Below, piece by piece: positions 634 through 7,260 of a DNA stretch of 41,339 bases. How positions within the stretch are numbered: the first letter of the stretch is position 1; each line of letters opens with the position of its first letter. This DNA is from a virus. The notes beneath the pieces are model-generated. The model did no database searches, was not told the DNA's origin, and saw nothing but the letters and a program-made list of their open reading frames with translations. Both the position numbers and the translations under genes were made by a program. The stretch is taken from IMG/VR virus record IMGVR_UViG_3300045988_044838, positions 1-41,339 of that record; one strand, given 5' to 3'.

Positions 634-1710
634 TTGAACTGTATACGTTGCAAAGCGGAGCTCCCAGCGGGGGCTATATACTGTCCTGTCTGTGGGAAGA
701 AACAGAGTGGCACTCCCCCACGAAAAGCCCTGAAACGGGCCAATGGCACCGGAACAGTCTATAAGCTGTCCGGCCGTCGGCGCCGCCCATGGGTAGCCGC
801 CAAGAATAAAGTAATCATCGGATACTACGAGCGTAAGACAGACGCTATAGAAGCTCTGGAAAAACTGTCTGGTCGGGACTTGTCGGAGCGGTACAACATG
901 ACATTTGCTGAGGTATTCGAGATATGGAAAGCGGAGCATTATCAGGAAATCGGTGAAAAGGGCGTTGAGGGATATAACCGGGCCTTTGCTGTGTTCGCCC
1001 CGCTCCACGAGAAGAAATTCAGGGATCTGCGCACAGCAGATTTTCAGTCGGCCCTAGACCCACACATGAAAAAGTCGCACTCCACCGTGTCAAAGTACAA
1101 GCAACTGATTACGCAGATGTCCCAATGGGCTATCCGGGAGGAAATCTGCACCACCAACTTTGCCAAATTCGTCCGGCTCCCGGAAAACGTCAAAAAGGAA
1201 AAAGACATCTTTACAGATCAAGAAATCGCAAAACTGGAAGCTGATAACAGCGAAACGGCGAAAATCGTTCTCATGCTGATTTATACAGGTATGCGTATTG
1301 GAGAATTGTTCTCACTTCCTCTTGCGGACTACCACGGCACCTATGTCGTAGGCGGAGAAAAAACAGAGGCGGGGAGAAACCGCATCATCCCCATTCGGCC
1401 CGAGGGGCGTAGATGCTTTGCGTACTTCGCTCAGCAGGCAGACGGACCGCTGCTCCTGTCTGGATATACCGGACAGCACCGCCCGGAAAACTACCGAAAA
1501 CGGGATTACTACCCTCTGTTGAAAAAACTGGGCATTCCGCAGAAAAACCCACATTGCACTCGGCACACTTACGCCAGCTGGGCAAGAAAACAGGGCATGG
1601 CTCCGGAGACCTTGCAAAAAATCCTGGGCCATGCGGATTACAGCACCACAGCAAATATCTATGTACATACAGACGCAGATGAATTGATACAGGCAGTCGA
1701 GAATTGTTAG
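634..1710 (+). CDS. int: Tyrosine integrase (phage integrase family) with N-terminal zinc ribbon
   Basis: TTG start follows AAGGGGGTG. The N-terminus has CxxC...CxxC. The C-terminus HCTRHTYASW...LGHADYSTTANIYVH is the R-H-R-Y recombinase signature. attP lies immediately downstream. Confidence 0.92.
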   Translation: MNCIRCKAELPAGAIYCPVCGKKQSGTPPRKALKRANGTGTVYKLSGRRRRPWVAAKNKVIIGYYERKTDAIEALEKLSGRDLSERYNMTFAEVFEIWKAEHYQEIGEKGVEGYNRAFAVFAPLHEKKFRDLRTADFQSALDPHMKKSHSTVSKYKQLITQMSQWAIREEICTTNFAKFVRLPENVKKEKDIFTDQEIAKLEADNSETAKIVLMLIYTGMRIGELFSLPLADYHGTYVVGGEKTEAGRNRIIPIRPEGRRCFAYFAQQADGPLLLSGYTGQHRPENYRKRDYYPLLKKLGIPQKNPHCTRHTYASWARKQGMAPETLQKILGHADYSTTANIYVHTDADELIQAVENC

Positions 1711-1955: not shown

Positions 1956-2297
1956 TCACAATCCTCTAATCTTCCGCATTACCCCATTATATACTCTCGG
2001 ATTAGCAACCTGGAGCGTGTCCATCAAGTCATCCATAATGCCCCATACCTGCTCCTCGTTTCTCCCTTCAATCTCCCGGAGAAATTCACTGTCTCCGTAT
2101 CTTCCGACCTCTGGAGGCATTTCAGCCGGAGCCGCAGAATAGGCTTGCTCATAGGAGCGATTTTGCATCTCTGGTTCTTGTTTATTCATTTGATTTTTGA
2201 TGGTGTACAAGGTTGCCAATTTAGCGTATGCGGGATAGCTGCTCTCGCCGTACTCCAGACGAGCAATCTCAATGTCGATCTCTTTGGGGTCTAGCAT
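1956..2297 (-). CDS. Hypothetical protein (accessory cluster next to attP)
   Basis: ORF-track frame 1956..2306. The ATG at 2297 follows AGGGGGTG. No domain recognised. Confidence 0.6.
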   Translation of the reverse strand: MLDPKEIDIEIARLEYGESSYPAYAKLATLYTIKNQMNKQEPEMQNRSYEQAYSAAPAEMPPEVGRYGDSEFLREIEGRNEEQVWGIMDDLMDTLQVANPRVYNGVMRKIRGL

Positions 2298-2312
2298 AGG
2301 GGGCACCCCCTA

Positions 2313-2711
2313 TCAATCCCGACCCAGTTCGGACATAAAGCGGCGAATGGCGTCGCGCTCCCTCTCAGTAGTAGCGTTATCCATCATCTCCTGAGCCTGC
2401 TCCATCATAGCCTCTTTGGAGTCGTGGCGACTGTATCCACCCATGCGCCCATCCCGGCTATAACGTCCCATGGAGTCCCGCTTCCGGCCACGGTAGCTGG
2501 AGCCGCGGGCATAAGTGCCGCGCATATCAGCCTCCCAATCCCCGGCCCGGCTGTATCCACCGTCCTCTTCCAACATTGCGATCTTGTCGATGTTCTTGAT
2601 GGTGTCGGTCAGCTTGTGAGCAGCTTCAAGGTCCCCGGCAGACATCTCCGGCTTGCGGGCGATCTCCTCCAACTCTTCGCAGAGCTTTTCTTTCAGTTCG
2701 TGCATATACAT
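2313..2711 (-). CDS. Hypothetical protein with R/G/Y/S-rich centre
   Basis: ATG at 2711 follows GAAAGGAGAG. It has GGYSR-type low-complexity repeats. No domain recognised. Confidence 0.6.
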   Translation of the reverse strand: MYMHELKEKLCEELEEIARKPEMSAGDLEAAHKLTDTIKNIDKIAMLEEDGGYSRAGDWEADMRGTYARGSSYRGRKRDSMGRYSRDGRMGGYSRHDSKEAMMEQAQEMMDNATTERERDAIRRFMSELGRD

Positions 2712-2724
2712 GTTGACTCTCCTT

Positions 2725-3147
2725 TCAAGCCACGCGCTCAACGATCAGGTTAGCATTTTCAACCTCAATCGTCTCCGCGCTGGTATTTTTGACTGCCACA
2801 GTCACGCAGCAGCCACGGGGGACCTCAATAAAGGCCGCAGCAAACACGTTGAAAAACTCGTCCACCGAGGCAGGGGTCACAATAGCAGTAGCGCTGCCCA
2901 GTGCCTCTCCCTCCACAGCGATGGCAACGGAGATAGGGCCTACCGCGCCGCCGGTGGGAATTGCAATGTTGCTGCCGAAAACCACTTTATAGCGGGCGCG
3001 GCACTGATTCGTCATTCCACGCAGGGTAACGATGCCGGAGCCGTCACGGTGCACGACGCAATTAGACCCGCTGACAGGCGTCTCCGTAAAGACCACGTTC
3101 TGATTAGCGGCTACCTGCTGGACAAATACTCCAGTAAATTCAGCCAT
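2725..3147 (-). CDS. Hypothetical beta-rich protein, possibly a BclA-C-terminal/C1q-like jelly-roll
   Basis: ATG at 3147 follows AAAGGA. The small-residue-rich sequence with alternating beta-like pattern resembles BclA-CTD-type domains. This is a weak similarity recalled from memory. Confidence 0.5.
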   Translation of the reverse strand: MAEFTGVFVQQVAANQNVVFTETPVSGSNCVVHRDGSGIVTLRGMTNQCRARYKVVFGSNIAIPTGGAVGPISVAIAVEGEALGSATAIVTPASVDEFFNVFAAAFIEVPRGCCVTVAVKNTSAETIEVENANLIVERVA

Positions 3148-3162
3148 AAACTTCATTCCTTT

Positions 3163-3196
3163 CAAAAAGATAGCGGCGAGGCTGTTGCCCCGCCGC
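3163..3196 (-). terminator. Rho-independent terminator after the Gly/Cys-rich membrane protein gene
   Basis: In minus sense, GCGGCGGGG-CAACAG-CCTCGCCGC is followed by TATCTTTTT. Confidence 0.6.
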
Positions 3197-3259
3197 ATGG
3201 TTCAAAATCGGCACGGGGCCGAACATGTAAGCCTTTCTTACAAGTTGATGTATTGGATT

Positions 3260-3997
3260 TTAGCAGCCGCAGCCGCAGGGGTTGCAGCCACATCCGGCAT
3301 AAGGATTGGGCACCTGATAGGCCGGGACGGGCATGGGGTTGATGCGGCGAATCAGTTCAGCGGTCTGCGCCTCCTGATTGGCGCTGAAGAAAGCGTTCTG
3401 CGCCGCCTGAGAAGCCTGGAACTTCAGGCTCTGGTTTTCAGCCGTCAGAGTAGCGATCTTATCCTGGGTCAGGAAGTCCAGGATCGCGCGGCTGTTGGCA
3501 TTGGCGTTGTCGATGATGTCGCGGGTGCTGGACTGGATGGTGTTGCGGGTATCGCAAGCCTGAGTAGCCATGTCGTACCGGACACCGTCAATGCTCCGCT
3601 GAGTATCGCAGCAGCACTGCGCCAGCTGGGCGCCGAGGGCGTTAAAGCCCGCCTGCGTCTGATAGCCCAGGTTGCACACAGCGGTATCCACGCCATGGAA
3701 GCCGTTGCTCACGGCATCCCGGATGGAGGTCTGGCCGTTCTGGAGGCCGTTCAGGGCGAAGCCCTCGTTGATGTCGGCCCTGGTGGCCCAGCCCTGACCA
3801 GAGGGAGAACCCAGGCCATTGCCGGAGTTACCACCCCAGCCGCCGCCATAGCCGCCCCAGCCGAACATACCGAAGATCAGGAACAGGATAATCCAGGAGG
3901 CCCAATCGCCGCCCCAACCGCCGAAACCGCCGTTTCCGCCCTGATAGGCAGGAGTCACGGGCATGGTCATCACAGCGCCGTCAGAAGAAAGACTCAT
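3260..3997 (-). CDS. Glycine-rich membrane protein with C-terminal GCGCNPCGCGC tail (unknown function)
   Basis: AAAGGAGA lies upstream of the ATG. GGW/GGY low-complexity runs flank one hydrophobic helix (WIILFLIFGMFGW). There is a CCC motif and a Cys/Gly C-terminus. The gene has an AT-rich upstream region and its own terminator. Confidence 0.7.
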   Translation of the reverse strand: MSLSSDGAVMTMPVTPAYQGGNGGFGGWGGDWASWIILFLIFGMFGWGGYGGGWGGNSGNGLGSPSGQGWATRADINEGFALNGLQNGQTSIRDAVSNGFHGVDTAVCNLGYQTQAGFNALGAQLAQCCCDTQRSIDGVRYDMATQACDTRNTIQSSTRDIIDNANANSRAILDFLTQDKIATLTAENQSLKFQASQAAQNAFFSANQEAQTAELIRRINPMPVPAYQVPNPYAGCGCNPCGCGC

Positions 3998-4205
3998 TGT
4001 GTTATCTCCTTTGTAGATTTATTTTCAAAACCCGGCCGGGATTTTGAGACTAGATTAAAACCAAATTGAAACTAAGTCACAAAAGATTGCAACTATAGTT
4101 GGCATATTTCTCTTGCGATTTGAAGAAGGGAAAGCGTTTTCTTAACTTTTTTATTTAGATTCTGAACTCTAAACTTACTTTATAGCTTTAGAGAGTAGTT
4201 TAGAC

Positions 4206-4427
4206 TTACTTCCCAAACATCCCCCGCATCCCCTCAAACATGCCCTGCATCTGCTGGGCCTGCTTTTGGACTTGGTTGAGCTGATCTTGAGAAATGCGGC
4301 CAGAGGATACCATTTCTTGTATCATGGCGTTAGGGTCCTTCCCCTTCATCTGGTTCATGAACTGCTGAAACTGCTGCATCATGTTGGGCTGTCTGTTGCC
4401 GCCCATCGCCTGGAAAAAGGGATTCAT
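4206..4427 (-). CDS. Small Q/M-rich protein (unknown)
   Basis: 73-aa ORF. Its start overlaps the stop of 4424..4831 (ATGA coupling). Confidence 0.6.
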   Translation of the reverse strand: MNPFFQAMGGNRQPNMMQQFQQFMNQMKGKDPNAMIQEMVSSGRISQDQLNQVQKQAQQMQGMFEGMRGMFGK

Positions 4428-4831
4428 TCCGTATCCTCCTTATCTTTTGCCGCCAGCGCATCCAGGCGGGCCTCCAGGGCCTCCAGACGAGACAGGGGCG
4501 CATACTCTACCGCCGGAGCCTGTGGGGCCTGTACGGGCCTCTGATTGCGCTCTACGAGGTCATATATCTTCATGCTGGGCTTGCCGCTTGCGTCCGCCTG
4601 TTTGAGATAGACCACTGGAGAGTTGCTGTCCCATAACGTAACGGCGGAGTTTGGAGCGACTAGATAATTAGCCGCCTCCATCTCGCTCTGCACCCACACA
4701 ATAGACGGAGACGCCGGGGCTTGCTGCGGCTGCTGCATGGGTTGATAGGACTGCCGCAGCTGCGTCAGCTGGTCCGCCATAGGCGGCTGATACGGTTGGT
4801 ACGGCTGATAGTAATAGGGATAGTTAGGCAT
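4424..4831 (-). CDS. Hypothetical protein with N-terminal YQP repeats
   Basis: The ATG is preceded by GAAAGGA. The N-terminus is PYYYQPYQPYQPP. The rest looks globular. Confidence 0.65.
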   Translation of the reverse strand: MPNYPYYYQPYQPYQPPMADQLTQLRQSYQPMQQPQQAPASPSIVWVQSEMEAANYLVAPNSAVTLWDSNSPVVYLKQADASGKPSMKIYDLVERNQRPVQAPQAPAVEYAPLSRLEALEARLDALAAKDKEDTE

Positions 4832-4837
4832 CTCACG

Positions 4838-5200
4838 TCATCCTTTCTGCCAGTAGTACAGCACAGTTTCGTGTTCACTGTGCCATGTATCGTAGATCAC
4901 ACCATCCTGCAGGCATACCACATGACCGGACAGGGCCAGAATGTAAGTCCCGTTTGGATGCCCCATCGCAAACTCCGCCACGGTCATGTCCTCGGGTGCC
5001 ATGTCACGCTGAAAGCCATGCCGTCGGAGATAAGCCCCCCATGTGGCGTTTGCGCTGGGCATATCGCCTCTCACAGCTCCCTCAATGCAGAGGCCAAGGT
5101 ATGTCCTGTACCAGTCCTGCTCCAGCGCCTTCGAGATGGCCCGGACGGTACAATCCCCCACATTTTTTTCGTAGGGGTTCGGATTGTAAAATTCAAACAT
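4838..5200 (-). CDS. Hypothetical Cys...His protein (possible papain-like peptidase fold)
   Basis: The conserved-looking part starts at MFEFYNPNPYEKNVGDCTVRAISKA and has a later GHVVCL..DTWHS motif. The N-terminal 51 aa of track ORF 4838..5353 look like out-of-frame junk (W/P/R-rich). Confidence 0.6.
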   Translation of the reverse strand: MFEFYNPNPYEKNVGDCTVRAISKALEQDWYRTYLGLCIEGAVRGDMPSANATWGAYLRRHGFQRDMAPEDMTVAEFAMGHPNGTYILALSGHVVCLQDGVIYDTWHSEHETVLYYWQKG

Positions 5201-5363
5201 ATTGCTTTCGGTCATCATACAAAAGCTCGTTCTGCCGGATAAACCCTTCAAGGCCGGAGAAGTCTCCCTCCGCCGCATACTTCTCGCAGGTGTCTCTTGC
5301 TGTGGACTCCGTGAAGCCGCAGGCCACCAGCCGGGCCACCAGTTCTGAACCATTCAGAATCAA
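5193..5363 (-). CDS. Small helical protein (56 aa), TTG start; not in the ORF track
   Basis: The alternative frame reads LILNGSELVARLVACGFTESTARDTCEKYAAEGDFSGLEGFIRQNELLYDDRKQYV. Its stop overlaps the ATG at 5200 (ATGTTTGA coupling). Confidence 0.4.
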   Translation of the reverse strand: MILNGSELVARLVACGFTESTARDTCEKYAAEGDFSGLEGFIRQNELLYDDRKQYV

Positions 5364-5462
5364 CTTAAAACACGTCCTTATATAAAAGATCAGAAGGCCG
5401 CAAGGAGGGCGGCGACGTGTACCAGCCCTTGTCCCTTACGTCCTCCTGATGATATTTTTGCA

Positions 5463-5500
5463 GAAAAAGGCCCCGCCTGGGTGGTATCCAAGCGGGGTTT
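5463..5500 (-). terminator. Rho-independent terminator ending the late/lysis operon
   Basis: In minus sense, the CCCCGC...GCGGGG stem is followed by CCTTTTTCTG. Confidence 0.65.
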
Positions 5501-5508
5501 AGGTGAAG

Positions 5509-5757
5509 TTATGTGAAATGTAGCTTCCGTGCAGTTCTTTCGACCTTTGAGACGATCCGTTTGACCCGGTAGGAAATGGTAGACCGCTCCCAGCCGAACT
5601 CCGCTGCAATGTCGATCTGCGGGACTTTGTCGATCAGGTAGCGCCGGGCAATGTCCGTATCATCATTCCCAAGATTAGCTTCCCGGATGGCCGTCTCCAT
5701 CTCGGAGCGCATAAGGCTATCCAGGCTATCCGGTAATCTGACACGGGCAGTTGCCAC
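5509..5757 (-). CDS. Small sigma-70 region-4-like HTH protein
   Basis: GTG start follows AAAGGA. ARRYLIDKVPQIDIAAEFGWERSTISYRVKRI resembles a sigma region 4 HTH. Confidence 0.6.
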   Translation of the reverse strand: MATARVRLPDSLDSLMRSEMETAIREANLGNDDTDIARRYLIDKVPQIDIAAEFGWERSTISYRVKRIVSKVERTARKLHFT

Positions 5758-5761
5758 AGTT

Positions 5762-6385
5762 TCACGTCCTTTCGATCAGCTCCCAAAGCCGATGCAACAT
5801 CGTGCACATCTGCTGCCGGGTAACGGGCTGGGAGAGCATCAGGTCTCCTTCACCGTTGCCCGTCATGATGCCGTTTGCAATGGCCCATTCCACGCCCTCC
5901 TTGTGGGCGGGAGACGGTGTATTGTCCATAGTGACCTCCTTGTCATAGGCGGGCCGTACAGCCCCCAAAATCTGCCCCAGCGTCCGGGTCCGGCGCATGA
6001 CCTCTCCCCCGTCGCTGTCGTTGCCAATGGCGGTATTGCCCTCGATGGCGGTGATGGAGCTGCCGCCCACCGCCTCCACGATGCCGCAGTGGTCCGGGCG
6101 CTTGTCCCCGCCCCAATCGTAGATCACCACGTCTCCAGGCTGGTAATTGGATGTCACCCAGTTTCCGGCGGCCTTGGCGGCGTTCATCAAGATTGTGCAG
6201 CTGGCGGTCTCAATGGGCAGCTTGACACTCGCCTGGGCAAAGACCCACTCCACAAACATCACGCACCAGGGCTGGCCGTCCAGGCCGTACCATGCGCCGT
6301 ATTTCGTCCGGTTGGAGTTGGCTGGGGTCTCTTTGTACCCCAGCTCTCCACGGGCGATGTCAAGGAGTTCCCGTACTGTTGCCAT
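5762..6385 (-). CDS. Endolysin: CHAP amidase/peptidase domain plus one SLH-like C-terminal repeat
   Basis: It has a Cys motif GQPWCVMFV and a His motif DHCGIV. The C-terminus EGVEWAIANGIMTGNG....VTRQQMCTMLHR is SLH-like. It lies adjacent to the holin. The ATG at 6385 is preferred over the Arg-rich TTG extension. Confidence 0.85.
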   Translation of the reverse strand: MATVRELLDIARGELGYKETPANSNRTKYGAWYGLDGQPWCVMFVEWVFAQASVKLPIETASCTILMNAAKAAGNWVTSNYQPGDVVIYDWGGDKRPDHCGIVEAVGGSSITAIEGNTAIGNDSDGGEVMRRTRTLGQILGAVRPAYDKEVTMDNTPSPAHKEGVEWAIANGIMTGNGEGDLMLSQPVTRQQMCTMLHRLWELIERT

Positions 6386-6575
6386 TGTCCGCCTGCGCTT
6401 TCTTCTCCGCCTGCGTCCCAAAATAGAACGCGATGACCACGGTGAACACCGTCAAGAACTGCTCCGCCGTCACGCCGCCGGTGCAGGTCAGGTAGGCAAA
6501 CACCGCCGTCAAAACGATGGTGACGATGGACTTCACTGTCAGCAGGTTTCCGAGGCGTTTTTGCAGTGTTTCCAT
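6360..6575 (-). CDS. Holin (two transmembrane helices)
   Basis: 71 aa with two hydrophobic helices and a charged C-terminus, immediately upstream of the endolysin. Confidence 0.75.
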   Translation of the reverse strand: METLQKRLGNLLTVKSIVTIVLTAVFAYLTCTGGVTAEQFLTVFTVVIAFYFGTQAEKKAQADNGNSTGTP

Positions 6576-6930: not shown

Positions 6931-7260
6931 TTACAGCCCAATGCGGGCCAAAATAAACGCAATCACAGCCGCCAGCACCGCCCATACGGACTTGTCCACG
7001 ATGGCCTCCCACCGCTTTTTCGGCTTGGCCTGCTCGGCCTCCTGCCATGCGATCAGCCGGTCCAGCTTCTCCATGATATTGTCGTACTGCTCATTCCGGG
7101 CGGCCTCCGCCTTTTCCAGTTCCCGCATCCGGTCAAAGAGTTCTTTGTGGGTGCTGCGGGATGCCTCCCGCCATTCCGACATCTGCTTTTCCAGCATGTT
7201 GGCTTTCTGGAGGCCCAGGCAATCCCTCTGCGGGTCCAGGATACACTTCTCGTCAGCCAT
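6931..7260 (-). CDS. XhlA-like coiled-coil protein with C-terminal membrane anchor (lysis-associated)
   Basis: A coiled-coil is followed by the C-terminal helix VWAVLAAVIAFILARIGL. Its position just upstream of holin/lysin matches the PBSX xhlA arrangement. Confidence 0.55.
   Translation of the reverse strand: MADEKCILDPQRDCLGLQKANMLEKQMSEWREASRSTHKELFDRMRELEKAEAARNEQYDNIMEKLDRLIAWQEAEQAKPKKRWEAIVDKSVWAVLAAVIAFILARIGL

Follow-up and report, generated by a model that had tools for sequence, protein, structure and literature searches.

The DNA analyzed here (the window) comprises all 41,339 bases of IMG/VR virus record IMGVR_UViG_3300045988_044838, which is complete, has direct terminal repeats, and represents a temperate siphophage. 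Our subject is a run of eight minus-strand open reading frames (ORFs), g1 to g8, which follow the endolysin gene, a small gene called sig82, and a strong terminator, and which end next to attP and an integrase gene (Table 1). The host is likely a member of the Oscillospiraceae because a g5 cluster at 84% identity carries the name Dysosmobacter welbionis. A sequence-only reading of this region had proposed that the eight genes could be lysogenic-conversion cargo that resembles spore-surface or envelope proteins. Comparison with related loci leads us to conclude with good confidence that they instead belong to a conserved phage-function module and are not private cargo.

All eight genes were found where they had been proposed, with the compositions described previously. 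They are packed into three blocks (g1 to g4, g5, and g6 to g8), with 208 nt between the first two and 112 nt between the last two. Neighboring genes are spaced by -8, 6, and -4 nt within the first block and by -17 and 6 nt within the last. The GC content of the cluster is 55%. Six of the eight proteins (g2 to g7) match PHROG families of unknown function with E values from 8e-14 to 5e-99, and homologs of all eight genes are present in related loci. Therefore, these ORFs are genuine genes rather than chance occurrences. As the sequence-only reading had noted, there is no phage-morphogenesis signature: scans of the eight proteins against Pfam, NCBIfam, and PADLOC gave no family above the cut-off. 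In addition, no signal-peptide-like N terminus was seen among the partner proteins of g5. Two terminators predicted earlier at 5463-5500 and 3163-3196 were recovered at slightly tighter positions, and the palindrome in the g5 leader was confirmed (Table 1).

Table 1. Positions of genes, RNA elements, and spacers in and around the g1 to g8 cluster
Feature	Position	Strand	Remarks
Tyrosine integrase	634-1710	+	NCBIfam scan
g8, helical protein	1956-2306	-	116 aa from GTG or 113 aa from ATG; last gene before attP and integrase
g7, 142 aa, R/E/G/Y/S-rich	2313-2741	-	phrog_28802 at 8e-14
g6, 140 aa, stand-alone TNF/C1q jelly roll of BclA_C/ExsF type	2725-3147	-	phrog_20016 at 1e-70
g5-g6 spacer, 112 nt	3148-3259	-	conserved; covarying hairpin, second hairpin, terminator
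Intrinsic terminator 3' of g5	3173-3196	-	-22.3 kcal/mol
g5, 245 aa, G 15%, 10 Cys	3260-3997	-	phrog_16490 at 5e-99; ends GCGCNPCGCGC
AT-rich g4-g5 spacer, 208 nt	3998-4205		32% GC; not conserved
Bulged hairpin (palindrome)	4026-4046	-	8 nt upstream of g5 Shine-Dalgarno; -9.3 kcal/mol
g4, 73-aa helical protein	4206-4427	-	Q 22%, M 16%; phrog_22984 at 1.5e-38
g3, 135 aa	4424-4831	-	P 13%, Q 12%, Y 8%; phrog_21718 at 1e-54
g2, 120 aa, papain-like Cys-His-Asp pattern	4838-5200	-	phrog_3754 at 3.5e-38; ATG inside 171-aa ORF
g1, 56-aa helical protein	5193-5363	-	overlaps g2 start by 8 nt
RAGATH-31 RNA motif (Rfam RF03101), 54-nt hairpin	5393-5446	-	between late terminator and g1
Intrinsic terminator ending lysis operon	5471-5497	-	10-bp stem, 8 GC pairs, U-tract; -20.4 kcal/mol
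sig82, 82-aa helix-turn-helix protein like sigma-70 region 4 or KorA	5509-5757	-	last gene before late terminator
CHAP/SLH endolysin	5762-6421	-	in lysis block with XhlA-like protein and holin

Distribution and genomic setting of the cassette

Related loci were gathered in three sets: 80 close IMG/VR viral loci, 71 more distant viral loci, and 80 species-representative bacterial genomes, the last of which were scanned with a single g5 protein as the query. Because all loci were chosen through g5, they reveal which genes travel together, not whether every relative of the phage carries the cassette. Among the close loci, the order of sig82 and g2 to g8 is kept in essentially all contigs that reach far enough. 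This includes a subgroup (L026 to L045) whose endolysin, holin, and fiber are undetectable with the window proteins and whose integrase is only 24 to 42% identical. Allele identities in the close loci are mosaic and differ gene by gene, which is the mark of a module that is shuffled as a unit with internal recombination.

The order g2-g3-g4-g5-g6-g7-(g8) recurs on one strand in the bacterial genomes, where g3 is present in 61 of the 80 loci, g4 in 56, g2 in 55, g7 in 54, g6 in 49, and g8 in 22. These carriers are mostly metagenome-assembled genomes of Oscillospiraceae, Acutalibacteraceae, Lachnospiraceae, and Ruminococcus, together with one Prevotella scaffold. Among the distant viral loci, g5 and then g6 are adjacent in 46 of 71, including contigs of 118 to 164 kb. 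This direct succession of g5 and g6 is the most persistent pairing, and g3 is also frequent. The cassette pattern is retained in Dulem viruses 33, 35, and 39, in bajarodcaudo virus 5, and in Clostridium perfringens phages. In CPD1, XP41-N3, and bajarodcaudo virus 5, genes resembling g3, g4, and g5 are present, and the next gene encodes a small Cys-rich beta protein distinct from g6. In the crAss-like phage cr53_1, a g5 relative follows the holin gene and a gene annotated as LysB-like. The surrounding region of cr53_1 (L003 5668-7647) also contains in-frame stops under translation table 11 (one in gp66 and several in gp64 and gp65), which are consistent with stop-codon recoding.

From these comparisons, the canonical cassette is composed of g2, g3, g4, g5, g6, g7, and often g8, in fixed order on one strand. 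These genes are inherited together as a unit, with g5 and a beta protein at its center. The earlier suggestion that the block might be variable cargo does not hold, as the relatives reveal a syntenic core while the flanking lysis, fiber, and integrase genes vary. Conservation of this kind is an outcome that the sequence-only reading had itself listed as refuting its proposal.

This mobile block usually resides in late-gene surroundings and is co-oriented with them. In the window it lies behind (downstream of) the endolysin gene. A cell-wall hydrolase gene (NlpC/P60, Amidase_3, GH25, or Amidase_2+CHAP+CW_7) is located upstream of g2 in four of ten sampled diverse prophages. In four others the cassette interrupts the head genes, after those for terminase, portal, and minor capsid protein 2 and before those for the scaffold and major head protein. 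Dulem virus 35 has its cassette in the head operon with a layout like that of the latter four prophages, and in Dulem virus 39 the cassette comes after the integrase gene. A gene for minor capsid protein 2 is co-stranded with the cassette in 11 of the 71 distant loci and 6 of the 80 genome loci and in none of the 80 close loci, and it is upstream of the cassette wherever positions are given.

The cassette is also independent of lysogeny. In Butyrivibrio virus Ceridwen, the endolysin gene is immediately followed by g2, g3, g4, g5, g6, an insertion encoding 264 aa, g7, and g8, and an integrase search of this phage was negative. In culture, only lytic growth of Ceridwen has been seen, and its describers judged it to be virulent (PMC7372960). 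No tyrosine integrase was found in CPD1, XP41-N3, or bajarodcaudo virus 5, and neither tyrosine nor large serine recombinases were found in five contigs of 118 to 164 kb that carry g5 and g6 (two of which are at least 94% complete). Likewise, the cassette is independent of host envelope type; phages with g5 presumably infect both monoderm Clostridia and diderm Bacteroidota.

These distributions bear directly on the proposal of lysogenic conversion, in which spore-coat-like or exosporium-like proteins made by the prophage would remodel the surface of the host or its spores. The position of the window copy between the late terminator and attP fits this proposal, as does the BclA/ExsF exosporium fold of g6 described below. 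Compositions rich in Cys, in Tyr/Gln/Pro, and in Gly, together with a papain-like enzyme, recall cross-linked coat proteins. The cassette proteins furthermore lack signal peptides, as do coat proteins, which are assembled in the mother cell. However, the proposal does not account for a block that is a syntenic core, that occurs in phages without integrases and in head operons, and that is carried in full by the lytic-only Ceridwen, whose host (Butyrivibrio fibrisolvens) is taken to be non-sporulating. Relatives of g5 are also found in a crAss-like phage and on a Prevotella scaffold, and the hosts of crAss-like phages and Prevotella are not known to sporulate. Moreover, a collagen-like stalk is lacking, and the eight proteins gave zero matches at E <= 0.1 to NCBIfam, including its sporulation and exosporium families and the exosporium leader. 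We therefore regard conversion cargo as very improbable. The accompanying likeness to spore-surface proteins holds for the fold of g6.

Proteins encoded by the cassette

The protein encoded by g6 had been described as beta-rich and similar to the BclA C-terminal domain (CTD) or C1q, and structure prediction bears this out. The AlphaFold2 (AF2) model has a pLDDT of 94.4, and a Foldseek search of the Protein Data Bank (PDB) returned the F-BclA CTD (9h38) as the best match (E 8e-8, TM-score up to 0.78). Further matches include ExsFA/BxpB (7r1m, TM-score 0.76; 8d02) and the BclA CTD (1wck, TM-score 0.66), with TNF ligands and some phage fiber knobs at lower ranks. Pfam family BclA_C (PF18573) is matched by 7 of 27 aligned g6 family members (best E 9.6e-9), and the window g6 itself has no match at E <= 0.1. 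Nearly all of the 150 listed proteins among the 674 representatives of the g6 family are about 140 aa long and stand-alone, without long fusions. There is no collagen-like GXY stalk, and g6 begins directly with its beta domain.

Some relatives encode another protein in the place of g6. In CPD1 (L002 6544-6921) and bajarodcaudo virus 5 (L086 8872-9291), g5 is followed by a gene for another beta-rich protein, 125 to 145 aa in length and with a Cys-rich N terminus (CNRRCNCCNRR). A gene of similar size follows the g5 relative of cr53_1 (L003 6600-7040). The beta-rich protein encoded after g5 looks like a non-orthologous replacement of the g6 knob.

The fold of g6 also matches the short tail fiber of cyanophage A-1(L), the portal-tail complex of cyanophage A4, and the central spike of phi812. 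These matches point to the alternative that the cassette products are virion components, such as a head or tail fiber with a TNF-fold knob, a decoration, or proteins that are packaged and ejected. The same alternative would account for a cassette that has minor capsid protein 2 on one side and the scaffold and major head genes on the other, as in Dulem virus 35 and four prophages of different species, and for the position of the g5 relative of cr53_1 among structural genes. However, most copies are located after the endolysin gene, where they are preceded by a terminator and are not part of the structural block, and no cassette protein matches a PHROG structural family. The classic transmembrane helix of g5, with its Gly/aromatic flanks, would be unusual in a fiber, and no virion proteome of a carrier phage was found. 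A place in the virion is thus an unlikely explanation in our judgment.

The g5 protein starts with an acidic N-terminal tail (residues 1-32), followed by a single transmembrane helix (33-49) between Gly/aromatic tracts. Residues 72-218 form a Pro-free segment of 147 residues with 18-residue repeats and an internal CCC motif, which would be about 22 nm long if it were one helix. The C terminus consists of a conserved Pro-rich linker with the pattern PxPAYxV (219-234) and a terminal Cys/Gly cluster (235-245). Near-invariant Cys residues in the family alignment are C128-130 (the CCC motif), C148, and C241. At least 7999 protein clusters (at 90% identity) were matched by the g5 family, and no match was found to Pfam with 28 diverse members or to PDB profiles. 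Among family members, the N-terminal tail averages 3.25 D/E versus 0.64 K/R, and the C-terminal flank is uncharged. We attempted to orient g5 by the positive-inside rule, but these charges do not discriminate between the two topologies. A role for g5 as a spanin was also rejected; the main hosts of the cassette are, we assume, monoderm Clostridia, and cr53_1 has its LysB-like-annotated gene beside its g5 relative. Upstream of the holin gene, the window encodes a 109-aa protein (6931-7260, minus strand) with a coiled coil and a C-terminal transmembrane helix that resembles XhlA, as judged from sequence alone. Therefore, the phage appears already to own a membrane-anchored lysis accessory protein besides g5.

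For g2, residues D16, C17, H93, and D104 are invariant among 22 to 23 sequences, and their order fits papain-like enzymes of the clan CA type. Its AF2 model (pLDDT 92) yielded weak Foldseek matches in the PDB, with Josephin at E 0.12 and TM-score 0.49, and with the ComA C39 domain and Tae4 weaker still. A search of BFVD gave Peptidase C39 at E 8e-3 along with strong matches to uncharacterized phage proteins, and no Pfam or PDB sequence match was found. The g2 family extends far beyond the cassette. By tblastn it occurs in 139 phage records, including 87 Pseudomonas phages, 23 Bacillus phages, 15 Prevotella Lak megaphages, and Geobacillus GBK2. The Bacillus phages concerned are mostly Tsamsa-like with genomes of 160 to 170 kb, and some of their genes are annotated as "putative peptidase."

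The remaining partners are of low complexity or helical. The g3 protein has a Y/Q/P-rich N terminus, a conserved central domain with the pattern WVxGExxAxxYxVAPN...LWD...Y.K..D.SG.P, which we read as small and beta-rich from its sequence, and a C-terminal helix. In g7, helical ends with the motif HKLTDTIKNIDKI enclose a disordered center rich in R/G/Y/S. PDB profile searches with g3 and g7, and Pfam scans with 25 to 28 diverse members of g3, g4, and g7, returned only noise. The notion that g4 is a Met/Gln-rich chaperone of the STI1/ubiquilin type was dropped because the Pfam matches were sub-threshold noise. Similarly, the idea that g3 and g4 are GerQ-like substrates of a Tgl-like g2 is an analogy that found no NCBIfam or Pfam support. 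Homologs of g8 occur in 59 close loci, in 22 of the 80 genome loci, and in Ceridwen; the resemblance in the C. perfringens phages is weak. Overall, the searches for remote homology and structure proposed by the earlier reading identified the BclA/ExsF fold for g6 and a weak papain-like resemblance for g2, and they gave no relative for g3, g4, g5, or g7.

RNA elements and a lineage-specific front end

Two RNA elements flank g5. The leader hairpin is kept in nearly all relatives, with the compensatory variants CCCGG/CCGGG, TTTCCGG/CCGGAAATT, and CCGTGG/CCACGG. The spacer between g5 and g6 is absent from Rfam. Its first hairpin has three compensatory variants (GTAAG/CTTAC, TCCGG/CCGGA, and CCGAGG/CCTTGG), and its second hairpin is invariant (UUCGGCcccgUGCCGA). 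This spacer may act in attenuation and so fix how much g5 is made relative to g6-g8.

The spacer between g4 and g5 varies from 46 to 1031 nt in relatives, where it usually contains only the hairpin and a ribosome-binding site. In some relatives it contains inserts, such as a gene for an HNH endonuclease, and it is an insertion hot spot in these phages. An int-alpA RNA (RF02996) was found in two relatives (L001 9615-9681 and L129 1724-1791); in Dulem virus 33, such an RNA lies in this spacer directly upstream of an endonuclease gene of opposite orientation. The previous proposal that g5 is an autonomous unit is upheld insofar as its terminator and leader hairpin are both conserved in relatives. 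However, the AT-rich region of 208 nt is peculiar to the window phage, and a consensus promoter scan of positions 3998-4205 found none. Because of these two results, the autonomy of g5 is unsupported.

The terminator and AT-rich spacer of g5 could also suit a superinfection-exclusion or protective membrane device, made late or from the prophage, in which g5 and its partners block the entry of rival DNA or the adsorption of rival phages. A bitopic g5 in phages that presumably infect both monoderm Clostridia and diderm Bacteroidota is compatible with such a device, as is the proximity of the window cassette to the integrase gene and attP. However, there is no PADLOC match, and the cassette is also carried by seemingly virulent phages that lack an integrase and is found within head operons. 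Known exclusion systems such as Sie, Ltp, Imm, and Sp comprise one or two genes, unlike this set of seven genes that encode mostly cytoplasmic low-complexity proteins. We consider exclusion to be distinctly improbable.

Ahead of g2, the window carries elements with a narrower distribution. The gap of 145 nt between the late terminator and g1 contains a RAGATH-31 motif that the sequence-only reading overlooked. RAGATH stands for RNAs associated with genes associated with twister and hammerhead ribozymes. The hairpin matches the full length of the RF03101 model (positions 1-54 of 54) with 76.0 bits (E 3.4e-14), above the Rfam gathering score of 71.8. Of the 80 close loci, 64 contain its core, mostly 45 to 65 nt ahead of g1 or some 190 nt ahead of g2, and its stems carry compensatory changes such as GUAAGG/CCUUGC versus GUGAGG/CCUCAC. 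A covariance model made from these close-relative copies was then run on 85 more distant cassette loci, where it found RAGATH-31 in two (L160 and L163), both of which also carry sig82, and gave a marginal match in L164. Consequently, RAGATH-31 was rejected as a universal leader of the cassette. No consensus promoter was found in positions 5364-5470. A literature search found no paper naming RAGATH-31, and the name RAGATH is absent from the main text of a paper that describes 224 candidate RNAs.

The sig82 protein falls under the cut-off for Pfam families KORA (E 3.7e-5) and Sigma70_r4 (E 0.1) and matches a PHROG sigma factor family at 3.3e-5. Its gene is present in 65 of 80 close loci but only 6 of 80 genome loci. 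The g1 gene is kept with conservative substitutions in 36 close loci and is found in 3 of 80 genome loci. Because RAGATH-31 is rare in distant loci and its clear matches there also carry sig82, the combination of sig82, terminator, RAGATH-31, and g1 is a lineage-specific front end added to the cassette. The motif is thus confined to the sig82-bearing lineage as an add-on, in contrast to the defining parts of the cassette. In relatives such as L007 and L008, insertions of 1.1 to 1.6 kb part RAGATH-31 from g1 (one case) or from sig82 (the others); the motif stays beside sig82 in L007 and beside g1 in L008, L011, and L017.

Other structured RNAs, among them RAGATH and hammerhead motifs, are found near cassettes elsewhere. 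Dulem virus 35 has a RAGATH-21 motif after a g7-like gene (L085 9927-10003), and Dulem virus 39 has two type II hammerhead ribozymes (L087 11890-11957 and 14099-14163). Ribozymes as constant neighbors of the cassette were dismissed, as none was found in 10 further loci. An IMG/VR relative carries a FuFi-1 RNA (L026 12527-12685). Upstream of the integrase gene, the window has a lower-GC stretch (46%) with two adjacent plus-strand genes (50-304 and 317-583) for paralogous coiled-coil proteins of 84 and 88 aa, whose C termini read ...INELKKAQ and ...INDLKKAQ.

Proposed function and known counterparts

We lean, by a little, toward reading the region as one copy of a widespread, uncharacterized gut-phage cassette that acts as a phage-function module and builds a g5 stalk with a g6 knob. 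Under this reading, g5 would be anchored in the cytoplasmic membrane through its single helix and would project a stalk of about 20 nm, which would probably be oligomeric and helical. A g6 trimer might cap the conserved Pro-rich and Cys-rich tip of g5, by analogy with the ExsF trimer. In the latter, clefts between subunits bind the Pro-rich exosporium-leader peptides of collagen-like stalk proteins (PMC12357932). A g5-g6 complex modeled on this analogy could well exist, but we place it slightly short of an even bet. The g2 protein may process or cross-link its partners, and g3, g4, g7, and g8 could be assembly partners or matrix proteins. Because these partners lack signal peptides, the structure would be put together at the cytoplasmic face of the membrane or not before lysis. 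The device would be made together with late genes, either lysis or head genes, and would serve the lytic cycle.

Several observations weigh against this proposal. In the window, the cassette lies behind a strong terminator beside attP, which is the classic position of a moron. In C. perfringens phages it is found between lysis and replication genes, and late expression is therefore not guaranteed everywhere; late timing, although probable, is read only from position and strand. The acidic tail of g5 and the near absence of K/R on either flank fit either topology. The C. perfringens phages, bajarodcaudo virus 5, and cr53_1 have a Cys-rich beta protein other than g6 after g5. Furthermore, no correlation was seen between the type of g5 C-terminal tail and the presence of g6 (many of the loci are truncated), which counts against the predicted contact between the two proteins. 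Finally, the modeled g2 structure resembles solved papain-like folds weakly.

More specific versions of the stalk-and-knob proposal are more tentative. Our best guess for the step concerned is a membrane role in the release or lysis stage, but we hold it to be doubtful. It is rather unlikely, in our estimate, that the cassette encodes a previously unrecognized self-assembling device of gut-anaerobe phages in which g5 is a membrane-anchored helical stalk and g6 a TNF-fold trimer cap. If so, the prion-like low-complexity proteins g3, g4, and g7 would embed or mature the stalk and cap, and g2 would be a papain-like cross-linker or protease. Such a device would form inside the infected cell and perform a new lytic step, whether progeny release, lysis control, or the organization of assembly at the membrane. 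If real, it would add to the known phage machinery a further class, with a generality comparable to that of spanins or holins.

Six cassette proteins are without a family, an assignable fold, or a literature, despite the abundance of g5 clusters and the recurrence of the ordered cassette in prophages from many families of gut Clostridia. Given how common it is, the module probably serves some general step of gut-phage biology that is missing from current models. Moreover, "spore-coat-like lysogenic-conversion cargo" is a tempting mis-annotation that could spread through prophage annotation. The analysis also gives the orphan RNA RAGATH-31 a defined gene set. A cultured pair with the full cassette is available in Ceridwen on B. 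fibrisolvens DSM 3071, and the C. perfringens phages offer a reduced version.

Among known systems, the closest structural counterparts of g6 are found in the exosporium of the Bacillus cereus group. Like the CTDs of BclA and F-BclA and like ExsFA/BxpB, g6 has a TNF/C1q jelly roll, and its family reaches BclA_C. It shares with ExsFA/BxpB a stand-alone form of about 140 to 170 aa without a signal peptide, and the docking of the ExsF trimer onto a Pro-rich leader is a model for g6 on the Pro-rich tail of g5. In contrast to the exosporium nap, the cassette has neither collagen GXY repeats nor an exosporium leader, its candidate stalk (g5) is an alpha-helical membrane protein, and the window g6 falls short of Pfam BclA_C. 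The cassette is also phage-borne, including in lytic-only phages and in phages of hosts taken as non-sporulating.

Temperate phages carry morons or lysogenic-conversion genes such as bor and lom of lambda. The window cassette resembles these in its terminator-bounded location at the end of the late operon beside attP. It differs from them as a seven-gene block of fixed order that is found across phage families, including integrase-less and lytic-only phages, and for which no consensus promoter was found in positions 3998-4205 or 5364-5470 of the window.

Bitopic lysis regulators and accessory proteins include the T4 holin T, the antiholin RI, XhlA of PBSX, and the i-spanins. The g5 protein has no sequence relation in Pfam or PHROG to holin, antiholin, or spanin families, the lysis block of the window already supplies an XhlA-like protein, a holin, and an endolysin, and the cassette also occurs away from lysis genes. 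Nevertheless, g5 resembles these bitopic proteins in having a single transmembrane helix near the N terminus and, C-terminal to it, a large helical portion in which Cys residues are conserved, and its gene is often directly downstream of the holin and endolysin genes.

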